Source: a virus (taxonomy: Duplodnaviria > Heunggongvirae > Uroviricota > Caudoviricetes). From it: a stretch of DNA of 21,204 bases. The stretch's first letter is position 1, and the number at the start of each line of letters is the position of its first letter. The position numbers and the translations under genes are program-made. Below, piece by piece: positions 620-20,904 of this stretch. Below the pieces are notes generated by a model. It ran no database searches. It was not told the origin of the DNA and saw only the letters and a program-made list of their open reading frames with translations. Where the stretch lies: IMG/VR virus record IMGVR_UViG_2703718841_000002; one strand, given 5' to 3'.

Positions 620-891
620 GTATTCGTATTGAAATTGGCGAACGTTATGTCGTTACCAGTGACAGCTTTCAGTTTATTCTCCACGAGAAAAAGAGAGCGG
701 AAAGCGGTAAAAACGCCGGTCAGGAATGGCTGGCGGTGGTTGGTTATTATCCGAAATTAAGCCAGCTCGTTTCCGGCCTGATGCATCACGATATTCTGAC
801 CGGAAGCGCAAAGTCTTTTGCTGATTTAAACGCGCAGGTTGAGCAACTCAGCAGGCGTTGTTCAGAGGCTTTTGGCTCATATGGCCGTTAA
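616..891 (+). CDS. Hypothetical protein (P2 orf83-like position)
   Basis: 91-aa ORF immediately upstream of and overlapping the A start. Confidence 0.55.
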   Translation: MSIRIEIGERYVVTSDSFQFILHEKKRAESGKNAGQEWLAVVGYYPKLSQLVSGLMHHDILTGSAKSFADLNAQVEQLSRRCSEAFGSYGR

Positions 892-3154
892 AGCCTCCGG
901 GCGTTTTGTCCCTCCGTCAGCATTTGCTGCAGGCACCGGTAAGGCGTTTACCGGTGCTTATGCATGGAACGCGCCACGCGAGGCCGTCGGGCGCGAAAGA
1001 TCCCTTACACGTGACGAGATGCGTCAGGTGCAAGGTGTTTTATCCACGATTAACCGCCTGCCTTACTTTTTGCGCTCGCTGTTTACTTCACGCTATGACT
1101 ACATCCGGCGCAATAAAAGCCCGGTGCACGGGTTTTATTTCCTCACATCCACTTTTCAGCGTCGTTTATGGCCGCGCATTGAGCGTGTGAATCAGCGCCA
1201 TGAAATGAACACCGACGCGTCGTTACTGTTTCTGGCAGAGCGTGACCACTATGCTCGCCTGCCGGGAATGAATGACAAGGAGCTGAAAAAGTTTGCTGCC
1301 CGTATCTCATCGCAGCTTTTCATGATGTATGAGGAACTCAGCGATGCCTGGGTGGATGCGCATGGCGAAAAAGAATCGCTGTTTACGGATGAGGCGCAGG
1401 CTCACCTCTATGGTCATGTTGCTGGCGCTGCACGTGCTTTCAATATTTCCCCGCTCTACTGGAAAAAATACCGTAAAGGGCAGATGACCACGAGGCAGGC
1501 ATATTCTGCCATTGCCCGTCTGTTTAACGATGAGTGGTGGACTCATCAGCTTAAAGGCCAGCGTATGCGCTGGCATGAAGCGTTACTGATAGCTGTCGGG
1601 GAGGTCAATAAAGACCGTTCTCCTTATGCCAGTAAACACGCCATTCGTGATGTGCGTGCGCGCCGCCAGGCAAATCTGGAATTTCTTAAATCGTGTGACC
1701 TTGAAAACAGGGAAACCGGCGAGCGCATCGACCTTATCAGTAAGGTGATGGGCAGTATTTCTAATCCTGAAATTCGCCGGATGGAGCTGATGAACACCAT
1801 TGCCGGTATTGAGCGTTACGCCGCCGCAGAGGGTGATGTGGGGATGTTTATCACGCTGACCGCGCCGTCAAAGTATCACCCGACTCGTCAGGTCAGAAAA
1901 GGCGAAAGTAAAACCGTTCAGCTTAATCACGGCTGGAACGATGAGGCATTTAATCCAAAGGATGCGCAGCGTTATCTCTGCCGCATCTGGAGCCTGATGC
2001 GCACGGCATTCAAGGATAATGATTTACAGGTCTACGGTTTGCGTGTCGTCGAGCCACACCACGACGGAACGCCGCACTGGCATATGATGCTTTTTTGTAA
2101 TCCACGCCAGCGTAACCAGATTATCGAAATCATGCGTCGCTATGCGCTCAAAGAGGATGGTGACGAAAGAGGAGCCGCGCGAAACCGTTTTCAGGCAAAG
2201 CACCTTAACCGGGGCGGTGCTGCGGGATATATCGCGAAATACATTTCAAAAAATATCGACGGCTATGCACTGGATGGTCAGCTCGATAACGATACCGGTA
2301 AGCCGCTTAAAGATACTGCCGCGGCTGTTACCGCATGGGCGTCAACGTGGCGCATCCCGCAATTTAAAACGGTTGGACTGCCGACAATGGGGGCTTACCG
2401 TGAACTACGCAAATTGCCTCGCGGCGTCAGTATTGCTGATGAGTTTGACGAACGCGTCGAGGCTGCTCGCGCTGCCGCAGACAGTGGTGATTTTGCGTTG
2501 TATATCAGCGCGCAGGGTGGGGCAAATGTCCCGCGCGATTGTCAGACTGTCAGGGTTGCCCGTAGCCCGTCGGATGACGTTAACGAGTACGAGGAAGAAG
2601 TCGGGAGAGTGGTCGGCATTTACGCGCCGCATCTCGGCGCGCGTCATATTCATATCACCAGAACGACGGACTGGCGCATTGTGCCGAAAGTTCCGGTCGT
2701 GGAGCCTTTGACTTTAAAAAGCGGCATCGCCGCGCCTCGGAGTCCTGTCAATAACTGTGGAAAGCTCACCGGTGGTGATACTTCGTTACCGGCTCCCACG
2801 CCTTCTGAGCACGCCGCAGCAGTGCTTAATCTGGTTGATGACGGTGTTATCGAATGGAATGACCCGGAGGTCGTGAGGGCGCTCAGAAGCGCATTAAAAC
2901 ACGGCCTGAGAAGACCAAACCGTCAGCAAAGAAACGGAAGCCCGTTAAAACTGCATGAAATAGCGCCATCGGCCAGACTTACCCGGTCGGAACGAATGCA
3001 AATTACCCGTATCCGCGTTGACCTTGCTCAGAACGGTATCAGGCCGCAGCGATGGGAGCTTGAGGCGCTGGCGCGTGGGGCAACCGTAAATTATGACGGG
3101 AAAAAATTCACGTATCCGATTGCTGAAGAGTGGTCGGGATTTTCCTCAAACTAA
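881..3154 (+). CDS. A: Replication initiation protein gpA (rolling-circle nicking endonuclease)
   Basis: ORF 839..3154; preferred start is the ATG at 881 (MAVKASGRFVPPSAF...); contains HUH-like PHWHMMLF and dual-tyrosine YIAKYISK motifs. Confidence 0.9.
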   Translation: MAVKASGRFVPPSAFAAGTGKAFTGAYAWNAPREAVGRERSLTRDEMRQVQGVLSTINRLPYFLRSLFTSRYDYIRRNKSPVHGFYFLTSTFQRRLWPRIERVNQRHEMNTDASLLFLAERDHYARLPGMNDKELKKFAARISSQLFMMYEELSDAWVDAHGEKESLFTDEAQAHLYGHVAGAARAFNISPLYWKKYRKGQMTTRQAYSAIARLFNDEWWTHQLKGQRMRWHEALLIAVGEVNKDRSPYASKHAIRDVRARRQANLEFLKSCDLENRETGERIDLISKVMGSISNPEIRRMELMNTIAGIERYAAAEGDVGMFITLTAPSKYHPTRQVRKGESKTVQLNHGWNDEAFNPKDAQRYLCRIWSLMRTAFKDNDLQVYGLRVVEPHHDGTPHWHMMLFCNPRQRNQIIEIMRRYALKEDGDERGAARNRFQAKHLNRGGAAGYIAKYISKNIDGYALDGQLDNDTGKPLKDTAAAVTAWASTWRIPQFKTVGLPTMGAYRELRKLPRGVSIADEFDERVEAARAAADSGDFALYISAQGGANVPRDCQTVRVARSPSDDVNEYEEEVGRVVGIYAPHLGARHIHITRTTDWRIVPKVPVVEPLTLKSGIAAPRSPVNNCGKLTGGDTSLPAPTPSEHAAAVLNLVDDGVIEWNDPEVVRALRSALKHGLRRPNRQQRNGSPLKLHEIAPSARLTRSERMQITRIRVDLAQNGIRPQRWELEALARGATVNYDGKKFTYPIAEEWSGFSSN

Positions 3155-3326
3155 TAATGATGTTTGACAAAGAGATGTTGATGAGACTAAAAATTTTATT
3201 TGTCTGTATAACCATTCGGTTAGAGTACAATAGTTCCGAGTGATAGGAATACAAATAATGACTAAGTTTTCAACATGCGATTATTATGGGTTGAATTAAA
3301 GGTAAATAACTATGTTAAATAATATA

Positions 3327-3358
3327 GGGCAAGAGGGTGTTCTTGCCCTTTGTTTATT
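3327..3358. terminator. Candidate intrinsic terminator hairpin between A and the SIR2-like gene
   Basis: GGGCAAGA / TCTTGCCC 8-bp inverted repeat with 6-nt loop, followed by TTTGTTTATTT on the plus strand; overlaps the minus-strand stop codon. Confidence 0.45.
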
Positions 3359-5952
3359 TAAGCGGCGATTTCAATGTTGCTTTTATATTTTAAGAGGGCG
3401 TTTTTGGGAACTGCTGGCCAGGCTGAGTATCTATAATAGTTCATATAATCTTTCTCTATCAGTGTTTTTAGCTGTTTGTTAGCTTGAACTTCATCGCCAA
3501 GTAAAAAGAATGCACACATGGCCGTAGCCCCTTTTGAATTGTTATGTGCTAAAACTGAATTTATCTCATTCTTTTTAATGTCTTGCCCTTCTTTTTTCTT
3601 GGCAACTTCTCTATTGATTATTAAAACATCTTTTTCCCTGTAATCTTTAATTTTTTCAAGGTTTTCATTAGCGATTTTAATTGTTTCTTTATAGTTTCCT
3701 GCAAGAAGATTGGTATAAGATTTTCCTAAGATATAATCACTAAACCCGTAACCTTTTTCATAAGCTTCATCAAGAAGAACTATCGCTTTATCATAATCGC
3801 CGTTTAAAGATGCAATATCAGATTTTAATTTTAAAATGGTGATTTCTGATTTGTTTCTTGGCAGGCTATCAATAAACTCCTCTGCCAATTTGATGTTGTT
3901 TTTATCAATTAGTAATATGTCTACAATACTGTTTGTATGATTATTTTTCCACGGGCAGTTCATGGCTTCTTTGACTAATTCAATACCAGCTTTGATGTCC
4001 CTGTTGCAGCCTATCTCATATCGAGCTTTAAATATAATGAAAGGAGCAATTCTTGCAATGTCGCTCTCTTCTTCATATTTATCAATAAAGCCTTTCATCA
4101 GGTTGGGAGTGTTTTCATCGAAGTCTGTTTCAAATAAAGATAGATGCAGTTGTGTTAAATATTTTAATATGTTTCTTTTTTTATTTTTTGATGATGTTTT
4201 GTAAGCGTTGGATAATGTATCTATGCATAATAATGTATCTTCTTTCTTTTGCAATGCGCAGGTGAAATCAGTATATAACGACAAATATGTATCGTGAGTA
4301 GGGTTGACCTCTTTTATTTTGTCAAGCAGTTCTTGTATTAATTTATTACAATCTTTCTTATCATGGCTTGATTGATGTTTTGTCTTTATTGCGTCATATT
4401 TTATTCTCCATGCAATATTATCCAGATCACTGCTTTGGAGTAAGCTTTTATCAATTAAATCATGTATTTCATCAAAGGTTATTAATTCTTCATCATTATT
4501 TTCTAGATGTAGAATAGCAATTCTGCTTAAATGATTCTTAAGATTTATGCTATATGGGAATTTTTCAAGCAATCCCTTAAGGTAATGTATTTTTGCCTTT
4601 AGATCTGTGAATATGTTTGCCCTTGAAAGGGCGTAATTTATATTAAATTCATCAAGAGCTATAAGATTATCACTAATTTCTAATGCTGACTTTGTGTCTT
4701 TTTGTTCTTCTTTTATTTCAATTAGCCTACGCAGATATTTAGACTTTATATTGTCACTATCAGCGTTATTGATTAATTCATTCAGTTTTGACTCTGCGTT
4801 TAAATAATTTTTATTTCTAATGAGGTTGTCAATGTATAACAAATTCTTAAAATCTTCTTCGGGGATCTTTTGATCGTCTAAATCACTTTGGGATAGCTCG
4901 TTTATTAATGACGATATGTCATGTGTTAGAGTGTGTTTTTTTAATTTTGAGAGGTCAGATTTGATAATGCCATTTTTAGATAAGTTGTACTCATCTGTTA
5001 TAAAGTTTTGGATCATCATCTCTCTTTTTGTGGATTTTTGATTCCCTCCAAAAGAGAGTGCGCAGCCTAATTCTAGGGCTAGTTCTGCCATCAATTCATC
5101 AAAACCTTCTATTTCTACCCAATAAACTTTATCTTGACCTAGAAGCCTAATAAGTTCTGGTGGGATGGAGTCATTTTTTCTAACGCACCAGTATACTCCA
5201 TTTCTTAGGTAATCGTCCTGTTTTAATAAATGTTTTAAAACATCCATGATAGAGCTGTCATTGCCAGCATAACCAACAAAAATAATCCCGTATTCTTTAG
5301 TGAATTCAGTTAGTTTTTCACGAGTGTTACCTTCTAATGACTCGGTTTCTTTTAAAGAGCTTTTTATGCTATCAAATAAATAATCACCATGTAATTTTAT
5401 TATTTTTGGCCTTGAAGAAGTAATTGAGACGCCTTTAATTGATGAATCATGTGCACATAATAATGGTCTGTCAGAAGAAAATTGATAAAATGCTTCATTT
5501 ATTAAATCGTCAAAATTTGTTGTGAAGACAGTATCAAAAAACTTTGATTCAAATAGTTCAACGAGATAAGCATATCCAATTGAAGGTAATTTTTTGTCTA
5601 CTTGAAGCTCAACAAATCTTCTGCGTTGAGATGGAAGATCAAATTTCTTTTCAAAAAGAGATGAGTATTCATTGTTTGGGTCGTACCAGACTGGATGGTT
5701 TTTGGATAGCCATTTTTTAGCTTCTTCGGCATCGACATATTCTTGATTAGATAGTCTTGTGTATATCTCTTCTCTCCATTTCGCTACTAACTCTTGACCA
5801 GTTTTTATTCCAGATGTAACGGATGCGCCAGCACCAAGAAAAAGTGAATAGTTAGGTGATGTACCTGATTTGATTTTTATATAATCAGCTAAATCTTTAA
5901 CGGTTCTTTTTTTGGCAACCAGTTGTTCCTTGGTAGTATCACGATCAGACAT
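3358..5952 (-). CDS. SIR2-like NADase domain protein with C-terminal helical-repeat (TPR-like) domain; candidate anti-phage defence protein
   Basis: 864-aa ORF; N-terminal LFLGAGASVTSG, TTNFDDLINEAF (Asn146), IIKLHGDYLF (His188, codon at 5389-5391 checked); GGAGGG RBS 4 nt upstream of ATG; very AT-rich against GC-rich flanks; no Walker A motif. Confidence 0.7.
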   Translation of the reverse strand: MSDRDTTKEQLVAKKRTVKDLADYIKIKSGTSPNYSLFLGAGASVTSGIKTGQELVAKWREEIYTRLSNQEYVDAEEAKKWLSKNHPVWYDPNNEYSSLFEKKFDLPSQRRRFVELQVDKKLPSIGYAYLVELFESKFFDTVFTTNFDDLINEAFYQFSSDRPLLCAHDSSIKGVSITSSRPKIIKLHGDYLFDSIKSSLKETESLEGNTREKLTEFTKEYGIIFVGYAGNDSSIMDVLKHLLKQDDYLRNGVYWCVRKNDSIPPELIRLLGQDKVYWVEIEGFDELMAELALELGCALSFGGNQKSTKREMMIQNFITDEYNLSKNGIIKSDLSKLKKHTLTHDISSLINELSQSDLDDQKIPEEDFKNLLYIDNLIRNKNYLNAESKLNELINNADSDNIKSKYLRRLIEIKEEQKDTKSALEISDNLIALDEFNINYALSRANIFTDLKAKIHYLKGLLEKFPYSINLKNHLSRIAILHLENNDEELITFDEIHDLIDKSLLQSSDLDNIAWRIKYDAIKTKHQSSHDKKDCNKLIQELLDKIKEVNPTHDTYLSLYTDFTCALQKKEDTLLCIDTLSNAYKTSSKNKKRNILKYLTQLHLSLFETDFDENTPNLMKGFIDKYEEESDIARIAPFIIFKARYEIGCNRDIKAGIELVKEAMNCPWKNNHTNSIVDILLIDKNNIKLAEEFIDSLPRNKSEITILKLKSDIASLNGDYDKAIVLLDEAYEKGYGFSDYILGKSYTNLLAGNYKETIKIANENLEKIKDYREKDVLIINREVAKKKEGQDIKKNEINSVLAHNNSKGATAMCAFFLLGDEVQANKQLKTLIEKDYMNYYRYSAWPAVPKNALLKYKSNIEIAA

Positions 5953-6452: not shown

Positions 6453-7487
6453 TCAGCCGTTGTCAGTGTCCAGTGAGTAGTTTTTAAAGCGGATGACCTC
6501 CTGACCGAGCCAGCCGTTTATCTCGCGGATCCTGTCCTGTAACGGGATAAGCTCATTGCGGACAAAGACCTTTGCCACTTTCTCAATATCACCCAGCGAC
6601 CCGACGTTCTCCGGCTTGCCGCCCATCAACTGAAAGGGGATGCGGTGCGCGTCCAGCAGGTCTGCGGCACTGGCTTTTTTGATATTAAAAAAATCGTCCT
6701 TCGTCGCCACTTCACTGAGCGGGATAATTTTAATGCCGTCGGCTTTCCCTTGTGGGGCATAGAGAAACAGATTTTTAAAGTTGTTGCGGCCTTTCGACTT
6801 CACCATGTTTTCGCGAAGCATTTCGATATCGTTGCGATCCTGCACGGCATCGGTGACGTACATGATGTATCCGGCATGTGCGCCGTTTTCGTAATACTTG
6901 CGGCGGAACAGCGTGGCCGATTCATTCAGCCAGGCAGAGTTAAGGGCGCTGAGATATTCCGGCAGGCCGTACAGCTCCTGATTAATATCCGGCTCCAGCA
7001 GGTGAAACACGGAGCCGGGTGCGAAGGCTGTCGGCTCGTTGAAGGACGGCACCCACCAGTAAACATCCTCTTCCACGCCACGGCGGGTATATTTTGCCGG
7101 TGAGGTTTCCAGTCTGATGACCTTACCGGTGGTGCTGTAACGCTTTTCCAGAAACGCATTACCGAACACCAGAAAATCCAGCACAAAGCGGCTGAAATCC
7201 TGCTGGGAAAGCCACGGATGCGGGATAAATGTCGAGGCCAGAATATTGCGTTTGACGTAAATCGGGGAGCTGTGATGCACGGCAGCACGCAGGCTTTTTG
7301 CCAGACCGGTAAAGCTGACCGGTGGCTCATACCATCTGCCGTTACTGATGCACTCAACGTAATCCAGAATGTCACGGCGGTCGAGTACCGGCACCGGCTC
7401 GCCAAAGGTGAATGCTTCCATTTTCGGGGCGCTGGCGGTCATTGTTTTTGCCGCAGGTCGCGGTGTTTTCCCTTTTTTCTTGCTCAT
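6453..7487 (-). CDS. Q: Portal protein gpQ
   Basis: 344-aa ORF MSKKKGKTPRPAAKTM...; length and position match P2 Q; start overlaps the stop of P. Confidence 0.9.
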   Translation of the reverse strand: MSKKKGKTPRPAAKTMTASAPKMEAFTFGEPVPVLDRRDILDYVECISNGRWYEPPVSFTGLAKSLRAAVHHSSPIYVKRNILASTFIPHPWLSQQDFSRFVLDFLVFGNAFLEKRYSTTGKVIRLETSPAKYTRRGVEEDVYWWVPSFNEPTAFAPGSVFHLLEPDINQELYGLPEYLSALNSAWLNESATLFRRKYYENGAHAGYIMYVTDAVQDRNDIEMLRENMVKSKGRNNFKNLFLYAPQGKADGIKIIPLSEVATKDDFFNIKKASAADLLDAHRIPFQLMGGKPENVGSLGDIEKVAKVFVRNELIPLQDRIREINGWLGQEVIRFKNYSLDTDNG

Positions 7488-8098
7488 CAGTAAAACTCCA
7501 GAATGGTGGATGTCAGCGGGGTGCTGATACCGGCGGTGAGTGGCTCATTTAACAGGGCGTGCATGGTCGCCCAGGCGAGGTCGGCGTGGCTGGCTTCCTC
7601 GCTGCGGCTGGCCTCATAGGTGGCACTGCGTCCGCTGCTGGTCATGGTCTTGCGGATAGCCATAAACGAGCTGGTGATGTCGGTGGCGCTGACGTCATAT
7701 TCCAGACAGCCACGGCGGATAACGTCTTTTGCCTTGAGCACCATTGCGGTTTTCATTTCCGGCGTGTAGCGGATATCGCGCGCGGCGGGATAGAACGAGC
7801 GCACGAGCTGGAACACGCCGACACCGAGGCCGGTGGCATCAATCCCGATGTATTCAACGTTATATTTTTCGGTGAGTTTGCGGATGGATTCCGCCTGGGT
7901 GGCAAAGTCCATGCCTTTCCACTGGTGACGCTCAAGTATTCTGAATTTGCCACCGGCCACCACCGGCGGTGCCAGCACCACGCATCCGGCGCTGTCGCCA
8001 CGGTGTGACGGGTCGTAACCAATCCATACCGGGCGGGAGCCGAACGGATTGGCGGCAAACGGCGCATAGTCTTCCCATTCTTCCAGCGTGTCGACCAT
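7487..8098 (-). pseudogene. P: Terminase large subunit gpP, truncated: only the C-terminal nuclease-domain 203 codons remain
   Basis: ORF begins MVDTLEEWEDYAPF...VWIGYDPSHRGD; P2 P is ~590 aa; sequence upstream of 8098 is the capsid gene on the other strand. Confidence 0.7.
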
Positions 8099-8104
8099 GC
8101 AGCG

Positions 8105-9139
8105 TTGCAGCTCCTCGAACTGAACGGCATCGACGCCGGTGATGTGTCGAAAAAATTCACCGTTGAACCGTCGGTCACCCAGACCCTGATGAACACCATG
8201 CAGGAGTCCTCTGATTTTCTGACCCGCATCAACATTGTGCCGGTCAGCGAAATGAAAGGGGAAAAAATTGGTATTGGTGTCACCGGCTCCATCGCCAGCA
8301 CCACCGACACCGCCGGTGGCACCGAGCGTCAGCCGAAGGACTTCTCGAAGCTGGCGTCAAACAAGTACGAATGCGACCAGATTAACTTCGATTTTTATAT
8401 CCGCTACAAAACGCTTGACCTGTGGGCGCGTTATCAGGATTTCCAGCTCCGTATCCGTAACGCCATTATCAAACGCCAGTCCCTTGATTTCATCATGGCC
8501 GGTTTTAACGGCGTGAAGCGTGCCGAAACCTCTGACCGCAGCAGCAATCCGATGCTGCAGGATGTGGCGGTCGGCTGGCTGCAGAAATACCGCAATGAAG
8601 CCCCGGCGCGCGTGATGAGCAAGGTTACTGACGAGGAAGGTCACACCACCTCTGAGGTCATCCGCGTGGGTAAGGGCGGTGATTATGCCAGCCTCGATGC
8701 ACTGGTGATGGATGCGACCAACAACCTGATTGAGCCGTGGTATCAGGAAGACCCTGACCTTGTGGTGATTGTGGGGCGTCAGCTACTGGCGGACAAGTAT
8801 TTCCCCATCGTCAACAGGGAGCAGGACAACAGCGAAATGCTGGCCGCTGACGTCATCATCAGCCAGAAACGCATCGGTAACCTGCCGGCGGTACGCGTCC
8901 CGTACTTCCCGGCGGATGCGATGCTCATCACGAAGCTGGAAAACCTGTCCATCTACTACATGGATGACAGCCATCGCCGCGTGATTGAGGAAAACCCGAA
9001 ACTCGACCGCGTGGAGAACTACGAGTCAATGAACATTGATTACGTGGTGGAAGACTACGCCGCCGGTTGTCTGGTGGAAAAAATTAAGGTCGGTGATTTC
9101 TCCACACCGGCTAAAGCGACCGCAGAGTCGGGAGCGTAA
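8105..9139 (+). CDS. N: Major capsid protein gpN, 5'-truncated (native start and ~15 N-terminal codons missing; track start is a TTG)
   Basis: 344-aa ORF ...LELNGIDAGDVSKKFTVEPSVTQTLMNTMQESSDFLTR... recognised as P2 N; begins within a few nt of the truncated P. Confidence 0.8.
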   Translation: MQLLELNGIDAGDVSKKFTVEPSVTQTLMNTMQESSDFLTRINIVPVSEMKGEKIGIGVTGSIASTTDTAGGTERQPKDFSKLASNKYECDQINFDFYIRYKTLDLWARYQDFQLRIRNAIIKRQSLDFIMAGFNGVKRAETSDRSSNPMLQDVAVGWLQKYRNEAPARVMSKVTDEEGHTTSEVIRVGKGGDYASLDALVMDATNNLIEPWYQEDPDLVVIVGRQLLADKYFPIVNREQDNSEMLAADVIISQKRIGNLPAVRVPYFPADAMLITKLENLSIYYMDDSHRRVIEENPKLDRVENYESMNIDYVVEDYAAGCLVEKIKVGDFSTPAKATAESGA

Positions 9140-12333: not shown

Positions 12334-12478
12334 CCCGCAGAAGAACGGCGATTTAAGTGCTGATATCCGGCAGCTTGAGAACGCGCTGGCACGCTGTGCC
12401 AGCCAGGTAAAAATGATTAAACACTGTCAGGACGAAAACGATGCTCAAACCCGACAGCCTGCGCAGGGCGCTGACTGA
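12188..12478 (+). CDS. lysC: o-spanin lipoprotein LysC (Rz1-like), partly embedded in lysB in another frame
   Basis: Internal ATG of ORF 12071..12478 gives MKTRIFAAGMALTCLMLCAGC... with an LCAGC lipobox; 96 aa. Confidence 0.65.
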   Translation: MKTRIFAAGMALTCLMLCAGCTSVRPAPTPVIVHNACPKVSLCPMPGSDPQKNGDLSADIRQLENALARCASQVKMIKHCQDENDAQTRQPAQGAD

Positions 12479-12908
12479 TGCCGTCACGGTGCTGAAAACT
12501 AACCCCGATATGCTGCGGATATTCGTGGATAACGGGAGTATTGCCTCCACGCTAGCGGAGTCGTTGTCATTCGAAAAGCGTTACACGCTCAATGTCATTG
12601 TGACCGACTTTACCGGTGATTTTGACCTGCTCATCGTGCCGGTGCTGGCGTGGCTGCGGGAAAATCAGCCCGACATCATGACCACCGACGAAGGCCAGAA
12701 AAAGGGCTTCACGTTTTATGCAGACATCAACAATGACAGCAGCTTTGATATCAGCATCAGCCTGATGCTGACCGAGCGCACGCTGGTCAGTGAGGTGGAC
12801 GGCGCACTGCATGTGAAGAATATCCCGGAACCCACGCCGCCGGAGCCGGTCACCCGCCCGATGGAGCTTTATATCAATGGTGAACTGGTGAGCAAGTGGG
12901 ATGAATGA
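12441..12908 (+). CDS. R: Tail completion protein gpR
   Basis: 155-aa ORF MLKPDSLRRALTDAVTVLKTNPDML...; P2 R-like. Confidence 0.85.
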   Translation: MLKPDSLRRALTDAVTVLKTNPDMLRIFVDNGSIASTLAESLSFEKRYTLNVIVTDFTGDFDLLIVPVLAWLRENQPDIMTTDEGQKKGFTFYADINNDSSFDISISLMLTERTLVSEVDGALHVKNIPEPTPPEPVTRPMELYINGELVSKWDE

Positions 12909-13359
12909 GTTTAAGCGTTTTGAAGACCGGCTGACCGGACTGATTGAGTCGCTGTCACCGTCAGGGCGTCGGCGACTGGCGGTAGATATTGCGAAGAAGC
13001 TGCGCCAGCGCCAGCAGCAGCGAATTAAATTACAAAAAGCCCCGGATGGTACGCCGTATGTACCGAGAAAAAACCAACCAGTACGAAATAAGAAAGGCCG
13101 GATAAAGCGGGAAATGTTTGTGAAATTACGCACTAACCGGTTTATGAAAGCAACAGGTAGCGAGAGTGCGGCGGTGGTGGCGTTTGCCAGCGGAGTACAA
13201 CGAATTGCGCGAGTACATCAATTAGGGCTTAGGGATAAGCCGGGGCGTAATAGTGCTGTGGTGGAATATCCTGTTCGTGAGTTATTTGGTTTTGACAAGG
13301 AATCTATACAATTGATAGAAAGGGAGTTATTAGTGATTCTATCGAAAGATGTTATATGA
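12901..13359 (+). CDS. S: Tail completion protein gpS (3' end is AT-rich, possibly a chimeric C-terminus)
   Basis: 152-aa ORF MNEFKRFEDRLTGLIESLSPSGRRRL...; composition turns AT-rich from about 13200. Confidence 0.8.
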   Translation: MNEFKRFEDRLTGLIESLSPSGRRRLAVDIAKKLRQRQQQRIKLQKAPDGTPYVPRKNQPVRNKKGRIKREMFVKLRTNRFMKATGSESAAVVAFASGVQRIARVHQLGLRDKPGRNSAVVEYPVRELFGFDKESIQLIERELLVILSKDVI

Positions 13360-14111
13360 GACGGGTGTTTGTGGATAAAAAGTTTTCCATTTTGAGAAAA
13401 AGAGTAAAGCATTCTCAAAAGAAAGTTATGGATTGTATTATTGCTGACCATAATGCTGATATATGTGTGTTATGCGGGAGTTCTGACGATATTACTCGTG
13501 AGCACATTATTCCTCAGTGGGCCTTTGAGTCAAATGCTGAAAAATCTTTAATTAATAAAAAGAATAATCAGTCAACTCATTACATTAAAGCCACTGTACC
13601 AGCATGCAGAGTGTGCAATTCTGATTTGCTGGGAGTGTTTGAGTATAACCTGAAGAAATTTCTTACGGAAAAGAGAGGGGAGGAGTTAACAGATTATGAG
13701 TATGATTGCATCATATGGTGGTTGCAATACATGGGTTTTAAGTTGCAATTAATGGATTTGCGGAACCGCTTTCTCAGGTATAAAGGTGGTGATTATATCC
13801 CGTTTCTTGCAAACTTCCCGGTTGCAATGTTTTGGGGGAATGTCGATACGACGCCGGGGGATGTCTTCAGGATTATACGAAAATCGCGACGCAATCTGAT
13901 GTCGAAATGGAAGGATAAAAAACATAATTCTTTGATGGTTTTTGAAACATCAAACAAGAGTTTTCATTTCTTTCATAAGGTTGATGAATTTATTTTTATT
14001 GAAATTCCTCAGGTTAAGAAGGCGTTTTTCTTCTTTTTTAATAAAGAATTTGACAGCCATGATTTAGCTCATGAGGAGTGTATGAAGATTATAGAGAAGT
14101 GCTACAACTAA
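13356..14111 (+). CDS. HNH-motif endonuclease-like protein; candidate accessory/defence gene at the S-V moron site
   Basis: 251-aa AT-rich ORF with CVLCGSSDDITREHIIPQW and a second CRVCN pair; start overlaps the S stop. Confidence 0.6.
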   Translation: MRRVFVDKKFSILRKRVKHSQKKVMDCIIADHNADICVLCGSSDDITREHIIPQWAFESNAEKSLINKKNNQSTHYIKATVPACRVCNSDLLGVFEYNLKKFLTEKRGEELTDYEYDCIIWWLQYMGFKLQLMDLRNRFLRYKGGDYIPFLANFPVAMFWGNVDTTPGDVFRIIRKSRRNLMSKWKDKKHNSLMVFETSNKSFHFFHKVDEFIFIEIPQVKKAFFFFFNKEFDSHDLAHEECMKIIEKCYN

Positions 14112-14188
14112 TATTTGTTATGTTGTGTCACAGCTGACAGAACCCTCCATGATTGCTGCTGGTATCGTCCAGCGGCATCCTTCCCGTT
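14112..14188 (+). promoter_or_regulatory. Possible Ogr-dependent late promoter upstream of V (imperfect TGT-N11/13-ACA dyad)
   Basis: TGTTATGTTGTGTCACAGCTGACA in the intergenic region ahead of V; spacing does not match the TGT-N12-ACA consensus exactly. Confidence 0.25.
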
Positions 14189-14824
14189 ATGAACACTCTC
14201 GCAAATATTCAGGAACTCGCGCGCGCACTGCGCAATATGATTCGCACCGGCGTTATCGTCGAAACCGACCTTAACGCCGGTCGCTGCCGTGTGCAGACCG
14301 GCGGCATGTGCACCGACTGGCTTCAGTGGTTGACCCATCGTGCCGGGCGTTCGCGTACATGGTGGGCACCTTCCGTGGGGGAACAGGTGCTGATTCTGGC
14401 CGTGGGCGGTGAACTTGACACGGCGTTTGTTCTGCCGGGGATTTATTCCGGTGATAACCCCGCGCCGTCTGCGTCGGCGGATGCCCTGCATATCCGTTTC
14501 CCTGACGGGGCGGTGATTGAGTATGAACCCGAAACCAGTGCACTCATGGTAAGCGGAATTAAAACGGCCAGCGTGACGGCTTCTGATTCTGTTACTGCCA
14601 CGGTGCCGGTGGTCATGGTGAAAGCATCAACCCGCATCACCATGGACGCACCGGAGGTGGTCTGCACCAACAGGCTGATTACCGACACGCTGGAAGTGCA
14701 GAAGGGCGGGACGATGCGCGGCAACATTGAACACACCGGCGGTGAACTCTCATCAAACGGTAAGGTACTGCATACCCATAAACACCCCGGCGACAGCGGC
14801 GGCACAACCGGGAGTCCTCTATGA
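14189..14824 (+). CDS. V: Baseplate spike/assembly protein gpV
   Basis: ORF 14153..14824; preferred start MNTLANIQELARALRNM at 14189 (211 aa). Confidence 0.85.
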   Translation: MNTLANIQELARALRNMIRTGVIVETDLNAGRCRVQTGGMCTDWLQWLTHRAGRSRTWWAPSVGEQVLILAVGGELDTAFVLPGIYSGDNPAPSASADALHIRFPDGAVIEYEPETSALMVSGIKTASVTASDSVTATVPVVMVKASTRITMDAPEVVCTNRLITDTLEVQKGGTMRGNIEHTGGELSSNGKVLHTHKHPGDSGGTTGSPL

Positions 14825-16081: not shown

Positions 16082-16685
16082 TTCGCGACTGCTGCCGACC
16101 GGCTCATCACCGCTTGAAGTCGCTGCCGCAAAAGCCTGTGCGGAAATTGAAAAAACGCCGGTCAGTATTCGTGAGCTGTGGAACCCGGACACCTGCCCGG
16201 CAAATCTGCTGCCGTGGCTGGCGTGGTCATTTTCGGTTGACCGCTGGGATGATAAGTGGCCGGAAGCGACAAAACGCGCTGTTATCCGCGATGCGTATTT
16301 CATTCACTGCCATAAGGGCACTATAGGCGCAATCCGGCGTGTGGTGGAGCCGCTCGGCTATCTGATTGAGGTGAGGGAGTGGTGGCAGCTCAACGAGGAG
16401 CCGGGGACGTTCCGCATCGTTGTTGGCGTGCTTGAGCAGGGTATTACCGAGGAAATGTATCAGGAGCTGGAGCGCCTCGTTGCTGATGCAAAACCGGCAA
16501 GCCGCCATCTGACGGGACTGGCTATCAGTTTAAGTACAACCGGCAACATTTTTGCCGGTGCGGGATGCTATCACGGTGACGCCCTGACGGTTTATCCCTA
16601 CACCCCGGAGGCCATTATTGTCGGAGGGGATTATTTCCCGGCCTCGGCCATTCATTTAATTGATAACCTGAGAGTAAACGCATGA
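16074..16685 (+). CDS. I: Baseplate/tail protein gpI
   Basis: 203-aa ORF MSDSRLLPTGSSPLEVAAAKACAEIEK...; overlaps the J stop. Confidence 0.8.
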   Translation: MSDSRLLPTGSSPLEVAAAKACAEIEKTPVSIRELWNPDTCPANLLPWLAWSFSVDRWDDKWPEATKRAVIRDAYFIHCHKGTIGAIRRVVEPLGYLIEVREWWQLNEEPGTFRIVVGVLEQGITEEMYQELERLVADAKPASRHLTGLAISLSTTGNIFAGAGCYHGDALTVYPYTPEAIIVGGDYFPASAIHLIDNLRVNA

Positions 16686-17989
16686 CAGTGAAATACTACG
16701 CCATTCTGACTAATCAGGGCGCAGCACGGCTGGCTAACGCGACGATGCTCGGCAGTAAGCTGAATCTGACGCAAATGGCCGTTGGTGATGCGAATGGTGT
16801 CTTGCCGACACCAGACCCGGCACAGACAAAACTGATTAATCAGAAACGCATCGCGCCGCTGAATCTTCTGAGTGTTGACCCGAACAACCAGAGCCAGATT
16901 ATTGCGGAGCAAATCATCCCTGAGAACGAGGGCGGATTCTGGATCCGTGAGATTGGGCTTTATGATGATGAAGGCGTACTCATTGCGGTGGCGAACTGCC
17001 CGGAAACGTACAAACCGCAGTTGCAGGAAGGCAGTGGTCGTACCCAGACTATCCGCATGATTCTGGTTGTCACGAATACCGAAGCTATTACGCTGAAAAT
17101 CGACCCGTCGGTGGTACTGGCGACCCGTAAATACGTGGATGATAAAGTCCTGGAATTAAAGCTGTATGTGGATGACCAGATGAGAAACCACATTGCCGCA
17201 CAAGATCCTCATACCCAGTATGCGCAGAAACATAATCCGACATTTACCGGAGAACCAAAAGCGCCGACGCCTGCAGCAGGAAATAACACCACGCGGATTG
17301 CGACCACTGAGTTTGTTCAGGCCGCTATTACTGCTCTGATTAACGGTGCGCCAGCCACGCTGGACACACTGAAAGAAATTGCCGCAGCCATTAACAATGA
17401 CCCGAAATTCAGTACCACCATTAACAATGCGCTGTCAGGTAAGCAGCCACTGGATGAGACGCTGACTCATTTGAGTGGAAAGGATGTTGCCGGTCTTCTC
17501 GCATACCTTGGTTTGGGAGAAGGCTCTGCATTACCTGTTGGTGTCCCTGTTCCGTGGCCTTCAGCCACTCCGCCAACAGGCTGGCTGAAATGCAACGGAG
17601 CAGCTTTTTCTGCTGAAGAATACCCGGAACTGGCAAAGGCTTACCCGACAAATAAATTGCCAGATTTACGTGGTGAGTTTATTCGTGGCTGGGATGACGG
17701 GCGTGGTATTGATGCTGGACGTGCTTTATTGAGCCTTCAGGCTGGGATGCTGGAAAAACACCGCCATATTGTTGTTGCCAATGATGGTTACGACACAAAA
17801 GATGAATGGGAACTGGCTACGATTTTCAAAAAAACATACACACAAGGACGGGGACTTGATGCCACAAATACAGGAGGGAGTCTGATCCCATCACCGACAC
17901 TTCATTCACGAGGGAGTATCGGTAATACTGGCGGGAGTGAGACCCGTCCACGAAATATTGCATTTAACTTTATCGTAAGGGCTGCATAA
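16682..17989 (+). CDS. H: Tail fibre protein gpH with a tail-collar-like C-terminal receptor-binding module
   Basis: 435 aa; conserved N-terminal fibre anchor (GGFWIREIGLYDDEGVLIAVANCPETYKP) and C-terminal PVPWP...GW..CNG..........YP.L motif region; shorter than P2 H (~669 aa). Confidence 0.8.
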   Translation: MTVKYYAILTNQGAARLANATMLGSKLNLTQMAVGDANGVLPTPDPAQTKLINQKRIAPLNLLSVDPNNQSQIIAEQIIPENEGGFWIREIGLYDDEGVLIAVANCPETYKPQLQEGSGRTQTIRMILVVTNTEAITLKIDPSVVLATRKYVDDKVLELKLYVDDQMRNHIAAQDPHTQYAQKHNPTFTGEPKAPTPAAGNNTTRIATTEFVQAAITALINGAPATLDTLKEIAAAINNDPKFSTTINNALSGKQPLDETLTHLSGKDVAGLLAYLGLGEGSALPVGVPVPWPSATPPTGWLKCNGAAFSAEEYPELAKAYPTNKLPDLRGEFIRGWDDGRGIDAGRALLSLQAGMLEKHRHIVVANDGYDTKDEWELATIFKKTYTQGRGLDATNTGGSLIPSPTLHSRGSIGNTGGSETRPRNIAFNFIVRAA

Positions 17990-18597
17990 TGGATAACGCA
18001 GTATTAAATAGCGAGTTTATTGCCACGAAGGCGGGGAATATTACCGTCTATAACTACGATGGTGAAACTCGGGAATATATTTCTGCATCAACTGAATATC
18101 TTGCAGTGGGTGTCGGTATTCCAGCATATTCCTGTTTAGACGCTCCTGGTACATATAAGGCTGGTTATACAATTTGCCGTTCTGTAGATTTAAATTCATG
18201 GGAATATGTGCCAGACCATCGCGGTGAAATCGTCTATAACACCGAGACGGGAGATGCCAAAGAAATCACAGCACCGGGTGATTACCCCGAAAATACAACC
18301 ACTATCGCCCCATTAACGCCATACGATAAATGGGATGGTGAGAAATGGGTGACCGATACTGAGGCACAGCATAGCGCCGCAGTAGACGCGGCAGAAGCAC
18401 AGCGTCAGTCACTGATTGATACTGCAATGGCTTCCATTAGTCTGATTCAGCTGAAATTACAGGCCGGACGGAATCTGACGCAGTCAGAAACCAGCCGACT
18501 TAACACGGTGTTGGATTACATTGACGCGGTGACGGCAACAGATACCAGCACCGCGCCGGATGTTATCTGGCCTGAACTGCCGGAGACTGCGCAATAA
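17989..18597 (+). CDS. G: Tail fibre assembly chaperone gpG
   Basis: 202-aa ORF directly after H, ends ...VIWPELPETAQ. Confidence 0.75.
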   Translation: MDNAVLNSEFIATKAGNITVYNYDGETREYISASTEYLAVGVGIPAYSCLDAPGTYKAGYTICRSVDLNSWEYVPDHRGEIVYNTETGDAKEITAPGDYPENTTTIAPLTPYDKWDGEKWVTDTEAQHSAAVDAAEAQRQSLIDTAMASISLIQLKLQAGRNLTQSETSRLNTVLDYIDAVTATDTSTAPDVIWPELPETAQ

Positions 18598-18733
18598 ACT
18601 CACCATCAATATATAAATCCCCCTGCTGTGTGTCAGCAGGGCATTCTTTCCATATTAATGATGGATGGAATCTTCCTTCAGGATTAATTTCCGTTATCTC
18701 TTCTACTTTATTTTCTTCAATTCTTGCCCACAT
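18563..18733 (-). CDS. Small hypothetical ORF (56 aa), AT-rich, convergent with G
   Basis: Internal ATG of track ORF 18563..18991 gives MWARIEENKVEEITEINPEGRFHPSLIWKECPADTQQGDLYIDGEFIAQSPAVQAR; the upstream part of that track ORF is an alternate frame of the Gly-rich ORF. Confidence 0.3.
   Translation of the reverse strand: MWARIEENKVEEITEINPEGRFHPSLIWKECPADTQQGDLYIDGEFIAQSPAVQAR
18621..18641 (+). terminator. Hairpin after G (CCCTGCTG-tgtgt-CAGCAGGG), weak terminator candidate
   Basis: Perfect 8-bp inverted repeat just after the G stop, followed by moderately T-rich sequence; also lies inside a possible minus-strand small ORF. Confidence 0.3.
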
Positions 18734-18740
18734 ATGAACC

Positions 18741-19157
18741 TCACCAGTAAATATAAACTGCGCCATCTGCTCCGGCACCCGACTGACCCGTTGATGAATT
18801 AGGACATAATCCAGCTCCGCCACCTCCAGGCCCAACTGCTGATACCGCTTTTCCGTTAGCTGTATCTCTGAATGAACCTGCTCCTCCGGGGCCACCACCA
18901 GAACCACCATTACCAGCTCCCGATGCGGCAGAAGCAATGGAACCTGGAGAACCTGGCCCAAGCGATGTATTAATTGTTCCCCCGACACCAACTGCTCCTA
19001 ACCCTCCGGAAGGCTGGCCTCCGCTATAGCCTCCGGAAGCTGACATGTAAGTCCCGAAACTGCTCGAGCCACCATTTTTACCGTTTACAGAAATACCAGA
19101 CACAGGCGCACCACCGGTACTGGAAAAACTCGGTGTTATCAACAAAGAGTCAGACAC
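18741..19157 (-). CDS. Glycine-rich ORF fragment (138 aa), possible remnant of G-FI cargo or of a fibre/adhesin-like gene
   Basis: Minus-strand ORF with repeated GGxGG/SGxG tracts (...GNGGSGGGPGGAGS...GPGGGGAG...); the plus-strand frames here look non-coding. Confidence 0.4.
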   Translation of the reverse strand: MSDSLLITPSFSSTGGAPVSGISVNGKNGGSSSFGTYMSASGGYSGGQPSGGLGAVGVGGTINTSLGPGSPGSIASAASGAGNGGSGGGPGGAGSFRDTANGKAVSAVGPGGGGAGLCPNSSTGQSGAGADGAVYIYW

Positions 19158-19928: not shown

Positions 19929-20904
19929 TGCTGGATGCGCTGACATTTGATGCAGGCAGTACGCTGACGCCGGATTACATGCTGATGCTCGACAGCAGGG
20001 ATATTACCGGCAATATCAGCGACCGTCTGATGAGTATGACCCTGACGGATAACCGGGGCTTTGAGGCTGACCAGCTTGATATTGAACTGAACGATGCCGA
20101 CGGGCAGGTCGGGCTGCCGGTTCGTGGCGCTGTCCTGACGGTGTATATCGGCTGGAAAGGTTTTGCTCTGGTATGCAAAGGGAAATTTACCGTTGATGAG
20201 GTTGAACACCGGGGCGCGCCGGATGTGGTCACCATCCGCGCCCGGAGTGCAGATTTCCGCGGGACGCTCAATTCCCGCCGTGAAGGTTCATGGCATGACA
20301 CCACGCTCGGTGCGATTGTTGAGGCGATAGCCTCCCGTAACAGGCTGGAAGCCAGAGTCGCTCCGTCACTGGCCGGAATTAAAATCCCACACATCGACCA
20401 GTCGCAGGAGTCCGACGCGAAATTCCTGACCCGTCNNNNNNNNNNNNNNNNNNNNNNNNNNNNNNNNNNNNNNNNNNNNNNNNNNNNNNNNNNNNNNNNN
20501 NNNNNNNNNNNNNNNNNNNNNNNNNNNNNNNNNNNNNNNNNNNNNNNNNNNNNNNNNNNNNNNNNNNNNNNNNNNNNNNNNNNNNNNNNNNNNNNNNNNN
20601 NNNNNNNNNNNNNNNNNNNNNNNNNNNNNNNNNNNNNNNNNNNNNNNNNNNNNNNNNNNNNNNNNNNNNNNNNNNNNNNNNNNNNNNNNNNNNNNNNNNN
20701 NNNNNNNNNNNNNNNNNNNNNNNNNNNNNNNNNNTTTACACGGAAACACCGGTCAAAGTGTCTGGCTTTAAGCGCGTCATAGACGAGCAGGACTGGACAA
20801 TCACTAAGGTGACACACTTTCTGAATAATTCCGGCTTCACGACGTCCTTAGAGCTTGAGGTCAGGCTTTCTGATGTGGAGTACGAAACAGAAGATGATGA
20901 GTGA
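19928..20904 (+). CDS. D: Tail protein gpD (late-control gene D), interrupted by an assembly gap
   Basis: N-terminal MLDALTFDAGSTLTPDYMLMLDSRDITGN...; after the N run the frame resumes ...VKVSGFKRVIDEQDWTITKVTHFLNNSGFTTSLELEVRLSDVEYETEDDE*; frames either side of the gap differ, so the gap length is not the true length. Confidence 0.75.
20436..20734. other. Assembly gap (run of 299 N)
   Basis: Uninterrupted N characters inside gene D. Confidence 0.99.

Follow-up and report, generated by a model that had tools for sequence, protein, structure and literature searches.

What is the function of an AT-rich gene lodged between two structural genes of a P2-like phage, and how did it come to be there? 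The question is raised by a DNA stretch of 21,204 nucleotides from the IMG/VR virus record IMGVR_UViG_2703718841_000002 (hereafter the window, which denotes the whole stretch at its full length). The window is a P2-like (Peduovirus) prophage, with strong Pfam matches for its R, S and V proteins. Between the genes for the tail completion protein gpS and the baseplate spike gpV lies an open reading frame (ORF) of 251 amino acids, referred to here as the HNH-like gene (Table 1). A first-pass annotation, made from the sequence alone, had described the ORF as AT-rich, with a start overlapping the S stop codon and a Cys-pair/His/Asn/Cys-pair motif typical of HNH (beta-beta-alpha-metal) nucleases, and had proposed either a superinfection-exclusion or defence nuclease or a homing endonuclease. 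This observation is confirmed, with slight uncertainty about the start codon: the motif is present (CVLCGSSDDITREHIIPQW from residue 37 and CRVCN from residue 84) and its residues are conserved across the family, the GC content of the gene is 0.362 compared with 0.55–0.60 in the flanks, and the ATG at 13356–13358 shares the sequence ATGA with the gpS stop codon. Based on residue conservation and a predicted structure, the product is very probably an HNH nuclease. A stand-alone nuclease carried as accessory cargo in conflicts between mobile elements, serving defence or superinfection exclusion, is the favoured role, with about an even chance of being correct.

No paper in the literature library searched characterizes the gene. 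The gene was published in 2019 as ORF16 of phage R18C, a rare moron of unassigned function: a 741-bp ORF in place of P2 orf30 between S and V, otherwise known only from a few Escherichia coli prophages, for which PSI-BLAST was uninformative (PMC6823313). The protein matches phrog_10503 over its full length (E value 1.6e-181), but PHROGs leaves the function of that family blank and provides no functional assignment. The identical E. coli protein bears the automatic UniProt name 'HNH endonuclease' and is listed as hypothetical at NCBI. The window copy is identical at the nucleotide level to that of strain ABWA45.

Conserved motif and predicted fold

Membership in the HNH nucleases is well supported by sequence conservation and by the topology of the predicted structure. 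Nine residues (C37, C40, E49, H50, P53, W55, C84, C87 and N88) are invariant in alignments of 20, 26 and 48 full-length homologues whose identity goes as low as 26%, while N70 is invariant or nearly so in the full-length family and conserved in at least 89–90% of the wider sets. Every cysteine, the E-H pair and the final N are kept in 100% of about 46 distant relatives. The invariance of the two CxxC pairs implies a putative structural zinc site flanking the core. The first half of the motif contains the first putative zinc-binding Cys pair and the candidate catalytic His, located at the end of strand beta1 (residues 46–50), and aligns with positions 1–21 of the HNH_5 profile and with the CxxC...DH..P segment of HNH nucleases in the PDB. 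The second half contains the second Cys pair and the putative metal-binding Asn, as well as the conserved E96, and aligns with 'vPaCkeCN' of PDB entry 4h9d. Conservation and the model together mark N70 as a candidate for the middle Asn of the H-N-N triad.

Profile searches gave a divided answer. The window protein itself falls under the Pfam cut-off for HNH_5 (PF14279; 16.2 versus 27.5 bits; E value 0.0099; residues 37–54 only), whereas its relatives match this family recurrently (33 of 36 N-terminal domains and 42 of 46 full-length relatives, with a best E value of 1.9e-8). Most of these matches are sub-threshold too, and beyond HNH_5 no family recurs more than twice among those relatives. 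An exhaustive profile search retrieved 868 cluster representatives, about 35 of which are full-length; the remaining ones share residues ~25–135 only, mostly within proteins of 300–360 amino acids. When a profile of the N-terminal domain was compared with the PDB, the top matches were HNH nucleases only (4h9d, 8zq9, 8w2z, 8w2s and 9lgi); they are individually weak (E value about 0.1), yet both halves of the motif align. The full-length profile found no relative among PDB sequences.

The second AlphaFold model, built from 48 sequences, is of high confidence (predicted local distance difference test, pLDDT, 91.6; predicted template modelling score, pTM, 0.90). It contains a strand at residues 46–50 ending in His50, a hairpin at 64–75, a strand at 80–84 and a helix at 85–105, and this predicted topology is that of a beta-beta-alpha-metal core with an inserted hairpin. 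The HNH reading of the first-pass annotation is supported by residue conservation, by the recurrent HNH_5 matches of relatives and by the topology obtained in the structure prediction.

The C-terminal region was predicted in the same model to comprise helices at residues 113–136 and 167–180, a four-stranded sheet at 193–227 and a terminal helix at 235–250. It is retained only within the family of ~250-amino-acid proteins and is missing from the HNH relatives of 300–360 amino acids. Searches with residues 106–251 gave no Pfam, PADLOC or PDB-sequence match. The earlier description of this region as rich in Lys and Phe holds for Phe (12.6%) and fails for Lys, which at 10.6% equals the content of the N-terminal part. 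Conserved residues K186, S192, F205, F214 and F227 look structural rather than catalytic in the alignments, and the region is proposed to act in target recognition or regulation.

The S-V slot and the linked gpS allele

P2-like flanks of the S-V site were found in 1,577 of 5,426 complete E. coli genomes, and 76 of the 1,577 carry the HNH-like gene, leaving ~95% of E. coli P2-like prophages without it. The site exists in at least three states: empty with a 66-bp spacer (the commonest), occupied by a gene of the P2 orf30 type, or occupied by the HNH-like gene. The presence/absence polymorphism that the first-pass annotation had suggested looking for across P2-like prophages, as typical of homing endonucleases, therefore exists. 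The S-V site is one of three moron sites of P2 (PMC6823313); the remaining two are recognized as defence hotspots (PMC9122126). Like those hotspots, the S-V slot can stack cargo, because second cargo genes occur there. Klebsiella P2-like prophages (L017–L019) harbor an unrelated gene for a protein of 216 amino acids between the HNH-like gene and gpV (6926–7576, minus strand), for which no Pfam or PADLOC match was found, and ~1 kb of extra cargo lies between the HNH-like gene and V in five IMG/VR loci.

The gene does not stand alone as a foreign segment. gpS is only 54% identical to its P2 counterpart and diverges from codon ~27 (12979–13359); it is thus a divergent protein between P2-like gpR and gpV, because a heterologous block spans most of gpS. 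Alignment with empty-site, orf30-type and R18C loci placed the edges of this block, ~1.2 kb in length, where identity to the P2/empty allele drops at 12979 and where it is back by ~14171. The same edges are present in six E. coli carriers (breakpoint 12979), which shows that they share one heterologous block; an ancestral recombination and repeated gene conversion fit this pattern alike. No meaningful direct or inverted repeats were detected at the edges, and a scan of the window revealed no Rfam family. The closest relative of the window gpS (72% identity) belongs to a Klebsiella P2-like phage that also carries the HNH-like gene, while P2 and orf30-type prophages retain the P2-type allele.

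Homologues with 45–74% identity occupy the slot in P2-like phages of Enterobacter, Klebsiella, Pantoea and Kluyvera and in P2-like phages from soil metagenomes, and the divergence of the gene among P2-like lineages (53–73% identity) is similar to that of the R, S and V proteins. Among E. coli carriers the ratio of nonsynonymous to synonymous polymorphism (pN/pS) is 0.09–0.23, like that of gpS and gpV; the gene is under purifying selection. Frameshifted or truncated copies are few, such as the one with an 11-bp deletion in strain 1504D004.

The arrangement with gpS is nearly constant. In 55 of 58 phage or prophage loci the HNH-like gene is immediately preceded by gpS on the same strand, the distance between the two genes is −20 to +20 nucleotides in 53 of these 55, and gpV follows at a median of 77 nucleotides. 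The AT-rich tract begins in the last ~60–140 bp of gpS rather than at the start of the ORF. The GC content of the last 60 bp of gpS is 0.23–0.32 in six gene-carrying lineages compared with 0.45 in P2, and this low-GC end (13300–13359 in the window; also in loci L007, L012, L015, L017 and L022) still encodes a homologous C-terminus (...IQLIERELL...). It may reflect a promoter embedded there, a need for translation to start in an unstructured region, or how the module arose. The O-N-M-L-X-Y-K-R-S late operon of P2 ends with gpS, and the HNH-like gene would therefore be an added terminal cistron of that operon.

Downstream of the gene the phage backbone resumes. The GTTGTGTCACAGCTGACA block is found 3' of the gene in the window and in loci L007, L012 and L015, and the empty-site allele has a similar version; it probably serves as the activator site of the P_V late promoter. 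The conserved GTTGTGTCA...GACA block and the GC-rich hairpin after the stop codon both belong to the backbone and probably make up the P_V promoter region.

Table 1. Features of the S-V region in the window.
Feature	Position	Strand	Evidence or remark
gpR	12441–12908		strong Pfam match; 98% identical to P2
gpS, tail completion/virion morphogenesis	12901–13359	+	PF05069, E value 2.5e-29
Heterologous block (divergent gpS and HNH-like gene)	12979–~14171	+	replaces the 3' part of P2-type gpS and the S-V spacer
HNH-like gene, ORF of 251 amino acids (30 kDa, pI 9.1)	13356–14111	+	between gpS and gpV
Probable annotated start, GTG	13371	+	246 amino acids, MDKKF... as in homologues; NCBI PGAP and R18C record, 15 nucleotides downstream
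HNH motif, first half, C37-x2-C40...T47-x-E49-H50-x2-P53-x-W55	13464–13520	+	invariant residues
Inserted beta-hairpin, residues 64–75, N70 in the turn	13545–13580	+	strands 64–67/72–75 in the model
HNH motif, second half: strand 80–84 (T-V-P-A-C84), helix 85–105 from C87-N88	13593–13670	+	alignments and model
Family-specific helical/beta region, residues 106–251	13671–14108	+	model, pLDDT 83–97
Conserved block GTTGTGTCACAGCTGACA after the stop codon of the HNH-like gene	14122–14139	+	backbone feature
GC-rich hairpin GCTGCTGG...CCAGCGGC upstream of gpV	14155–14176	+	shared with phages without the HNH-like gene
gpV, baseplate spike, P2-type allele	14189–14824	+	PF04717, PF18715; 96% identical to P2

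Family distribution and candidate roles

At 90% identity the full-length family falls into 239 clusters (E value ≤ 1e-10). A collection with one genome per species contained 150 relatives. Three of the best 80 of these loci have a P2 context, and two of the three look mis-binned: a Sporobacter termitidis metagenome-assembled genome (L031) and Chryseobacterium sp. 18061 (L032) carry 67%-identical copies between P2-type S and V, and since an enterobacterial-type P2 prophage is unexpected in those taxa, the contigs suggest mis-binning or contamination. The hosts of non-P2 copies include Vibrio, Photobacterium, Shewanella, Colwellia, Pseudoalteromonas, Halomonas and Acinetobacter, as well as Desulfobulbaceae, many Bacteroidota, Ignavibacteriota and Gracilibacteria. 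No neighbour recurs among 76 non-P2 loci from different species, the largest neighbour cluster consisting of three related Flavobacterium loci, and the median intergenic gaps at these loci are 125–145 nucleotides. The absence of any recurring neighbour implies an autonomous protein in variable neighbourhoods.

Six contexts were inspected by hand. One is another P2 S-V slot, and three of the five non-P2 contexts look defence-like: cargo of an integrative and conjugative element adjoining an integrase and a KAP NTPase; a locus adjoining AbiJ/Abi_C, Fic and an IS200-type transposase; and a locus near TIR and nSTAND1 proteins. Among the nearest flanking proteins of at least 110 amino acids, about 12 of 135 strongly match defence proteins, a raw count without a matched control. 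The matches are to Type IV restriction (two), PD-Lambda-3 B, bSEFIR, GajB, MkoA, MkoC, LmuA and several PDC candidates.

Defence or exclusion is favoured because of the solitary, context-independent distribution of the family, its occasional defence neighbours, the cargo-slot nature of the P2 site and the purifying selection on the gene. The inferred nuclease activity, target, expression timing and biological role can be outlined as follows. The protein would be a DNA nuclease of the HNH/His-Me-finger type, from an HNH_5-like branch that Pfam does not capture. C37, C40, C84 and C87 would hold a structural zinc that clamps the beta-beta-alpha core; His50, which follows Glu49 where the first strand ends, would be the general base; the catalytic divalent metal would be coordinated by Asn88, where the helix starts; and Asn70 would brace the hairpin. 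Residues 106–251 would select the target or gate the activity. The nuclease would work alone, without a conserved partner gene, and would most probably cut the DNA of an invading or competing phage. In P2-type phages, the gene would be read as the tail of the late operon rather than from its own promoter, with its translation coupled to that of gpS.

Several observations speak against this role, or against the nuclease assignment on which it depends. Two of the six hand-inspected contexts are ordinary or nearly so, one without anything defence-like and one with an Xre/RES toxin-antitoxin pair ~7 kb off, and the defence-neighbour count is suggestive only, because it has no matched control. A search of defence models, another check put forward in the first-pass annotation, came out negative: PADLOC v2.0.0 gave no significant match for the protein (best PDC-M01B, E value 0.033, and Cas8c, E value 0.036), and NCBIfam gave none. 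The HNH_5 score of the window protein is sub-threshold, and fold searches with an earlier, weaker model returned no significant HNH match. A promoter or terminator belonging to the gene was sought across lineages, but sites occurred at chance level and inconsistently; a promoter inside the AT-rich end of gpS may nevertheless exist. Tight coupling to S without a promoter of its own is unusual for a moron that protects the lysogen: a promoterless gene ending the late operon would not be expressed there, whereas the P2 exclusion genes old, tin and fun are expressed in the lysogen. Moreover, the virulent phage R18C retains the gene, which is equally compatible with a role in the lytic cycle.

Two rival explanations stay alive because the gene should be made together with the late proteins. 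A nuclease acting in the lytic cycle would serve the phage rather than the lysogen, either by degrading host, satellite (P4-like) or competitor DNA or by countering host defence. The rigid coupling to gpS in 53–55 of 58 phage loci, with no promoter or terminator between the genes, argues for this role, as do the long residence in the same slot with co-divergence across P2-like lineages (45–73% identity) and the persistence of the gene in R18C. Nevertheless, most of the family diversity comes from chromosomal loci outside phages, where the gene has an upstream region of its own, the gene is missing from ~95% of E. coli P2-like prophages, and the window copy is intact though its prophage seems to have lost the P/O late-promoter region; overall, such a role is considered rather improbable. 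A free-standing ('intronless') homing endonuclease, made late in co-infection, would cut the S-V region or the P2-type gpS of gene-free P2-like genomes, and repair would copy the gene together with an immune gpS. The polymorphism at one precise site among near-identical backbones is consistent with homing, and so are the occasional frameshifted or truncated copies. A tie to one flank is seen in P2-type phages, where 55 of 58 loci lie between S and V, but not in the 76 non-P2 genomes. The constant link to a strongly divergent gpS, while R and V remain 96–98% P2-like, would be expected if the target lay in gpS. The late-operon coupling recalls the seg and mob genes of T4, whose Mob homing enzymes are placed in HNH group 1 (PMC5714182). 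However, the protein has no NUMOD, IENR, AP2 or HNH_3 module (Pfam, E values up to 1), the wider family resides in 76 unrelated chromosomal contexts without a conserved flank, and purifying selection and co-divergence with structural genes give no sign of an invasion-decay cycle. The gene is also present in only ~5% of E. coli P2-like prophages. The identical block edges of the carriers carry no information either way, since any recombination resolves at the ends of a non-homologous block. Homing is accordingly regarded as unlikely.

The remaining explanations were given still less weight. The coupling to gpS could itself be functional, with a conflict nuclease wired into the structural late operon rather than expressed as an autonomous moron, for which the chance appears small. 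Such a nuclease would be silent in the lysogen and made only when P2 late promoters fire; one such case would be trans-activation of the resident prophage by the Ogr or Delta activator of a superinfecting P2-like phage or P4-type satellite. It would then be either an invader-triggered exclusion or anti-satellite nuclease, or an intronless homing enzyme whose linked divergent gpS is the cleavage-immune form of its target. At the far end stands a zinc-ribbon or HNH-like protein that binds DNA without catalysis, such as a regulator, or else a selfish passenger gene devoid of function. The sub-threshold score against HNH models, the lack of a significant structural match with the earlier model and the unusually long spacing from His50 to the second strand would suit an inactive protein, but it is unlikely because the whole catalytic set (E-H, N and N) is conserved and not the cysteines alone; purifying selection and relatives that reach an E value of 1.9e-8 against HNH_5 also speak against it.

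Whichever role applies, the gene belongs to a known kind, an HNH nuclease as phage cargo, while its family and C-terminal module are uncharacterized and missing from defence catalogues. About a third of E. coli genomes harbor P2-like prophages, and two of the three P2 cargo slots are already rich in new anti-phage systems, leaving the S-V slot unmined. The family ranges over Gammaproteobacteria, Bacteroidota, Desulfobulbaceae, Ignavibacteriota and candidate-phylum bacteria. Should the protein restrict phages, it would represent a compact one-gene system with a new regulatory or recognition module on an HNH core; a homing or late-acting nuclease, on the other hand, would explain why one gpS allele travels with the gene. 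The gene is a tractable candidate, because the viable phage R18C and intact lysogens (e.g., strain S56) carry it.

The window prophage itself appears defective, unless the assembly is wrong, because several regions are missing. Compared with R18C and E. coli S56, it lacks ~2.26 kb (R18C 1871–4130) at a junction with a 22-bp overlap (near 8116–8137); terminase P has lost its 5' part and N its start, and scaffold O and the divergent P/O late promoters are gone. The FI–T tail genes (sheath to tape-measure) are also missing (16510–19116). If these deletions are real, the normal late promoter cannot drive the HNH-like gene here, yet the gene is intact. The tail-fibre region of the window (16682–18991) differs from that of R18C, and in the S56 prophage (L182 14083–16239) a tail-fibre segment is invertible, a recombinase being encoded between the tail-fibre genes and the sheath gene. 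An apparent AT-rich island at 20436–20734 ('GC 0.22') and a truncated-D ORF were rejected as spurious, being caused by a run of 299 N's inside gene D in place of ~486 bp of real sequence in other genomes. At the old/tin hotspot, between gpA (839–3154) and portal Q (6453–7487), an ORF of 863 amino acids (3358–5952, minus strand; GC ~0.30) encodes a SIR2_2 domain (E value 4e-15) and gives strong PADLOC matches to models of SIR2 proteins associated with pAgo (Aga_SIR2-PNTD, 2e-59) and to PDC-S65. No Argonaute was found near it, and its sequence matches indicate that it is likely a stand-alone SIR2 defence protein. In R18C the hotspot is occupied by a gene for a Fic protein instead.

Comparison with known systems

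ORF16 of R18C (gp15; YP_009883387.1) is the same gene: the two are 98% identical, share the S-V position and are linked to the same gpS allele. P2 orf30 occupies the same slot and is similar in size (261 versus 251 amino acids) and in its low GC content (0.35), but lies on the opposite (minus) strand and has no sequence similarity to the HNH-like protein. The first-pass annotation was right in placing this low-GC moron at the S-V site of P2. Its proviso that the ORF might be a conserved orf30 homologue does not apply, because orf30 is unrelated; such an identity was rejected on the basis of strand and a BLASTP E value of 0.89. The orf30-type gene at locus L006 (2985–3770, minus strand) has no Pfam or PADLOC match. 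A length of '261 bp' is quoted for orf30 in the R18C paper (PMC6823313), but the P2 record shows a gene of 786 bp (261 amino acids) at the S-V site, so that the 261 of the paper probably refers to amino acids.

Several defence systems were considered and set aside. The HNH effector PtuB of Septu is annotated with PF14279 (PMC11464382) and thus belongs to the same Pfam-level HNH branch, and two distant relatives of the HNH-like protein give weak PtuB matches. Septu (PtuA-PtuB) was nevertheless rejected, as there is no PtuA-type ATPase or other conserved partner and no PtuB match for the protein itself. The likeness to Septu PtuB and Zorya ZorE drawn in the first-pass annotation stands at the level of the HNH domain superfamily and no closer. 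The weak PDC-M01B match is shared by a few distant relatives (best E value 9.7e-6); PDC-M01 is a two-gene candidate system, whereas the locus has no partner gene. DUF4238 (PF14022), a validated single-gene defence of P2 hotspots (Rst_DUF4238), gave one weak match to a trimmed domain (E value 0.052), and the link was rejected because none of the 46 full-length relatives match. END nucleases, single-gene systems directed against modified DNA, are of the PLD type and unrelated.

McrA, the Type IV restriction enzyme of prophage e14, is an HNH nuclease fused to a DNA-modification reader. As a single prophage-borne HNH nuclease with a second domain, which could allow self to be told from non-self, it provides a functional analogy only: the HNH-like protein lacks SRA, EVE, YTH or any other reader domain in Pfam, the order of its domains is reversed, and the PDB profile search with the N-terminal domain did not retrieve McrA. 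McrA is assigned to His-Me group 1 (PMC5714182). The closest likeness in architecture is to HNH_5 (PF14279), His-Me finger group 1/8, and to PDB 4h9d (Gmet_0936), with which the protein has in common the CxxC...[D/E]H..P...CxxCN layout and, as predicted, a zinc-stabilized beta-beta-alpha core. It differs from HNH_5 in an insertion of ~30 residues that adds a hairpin between the two core strands, and in an extra helical/beta module of ~145 residues.

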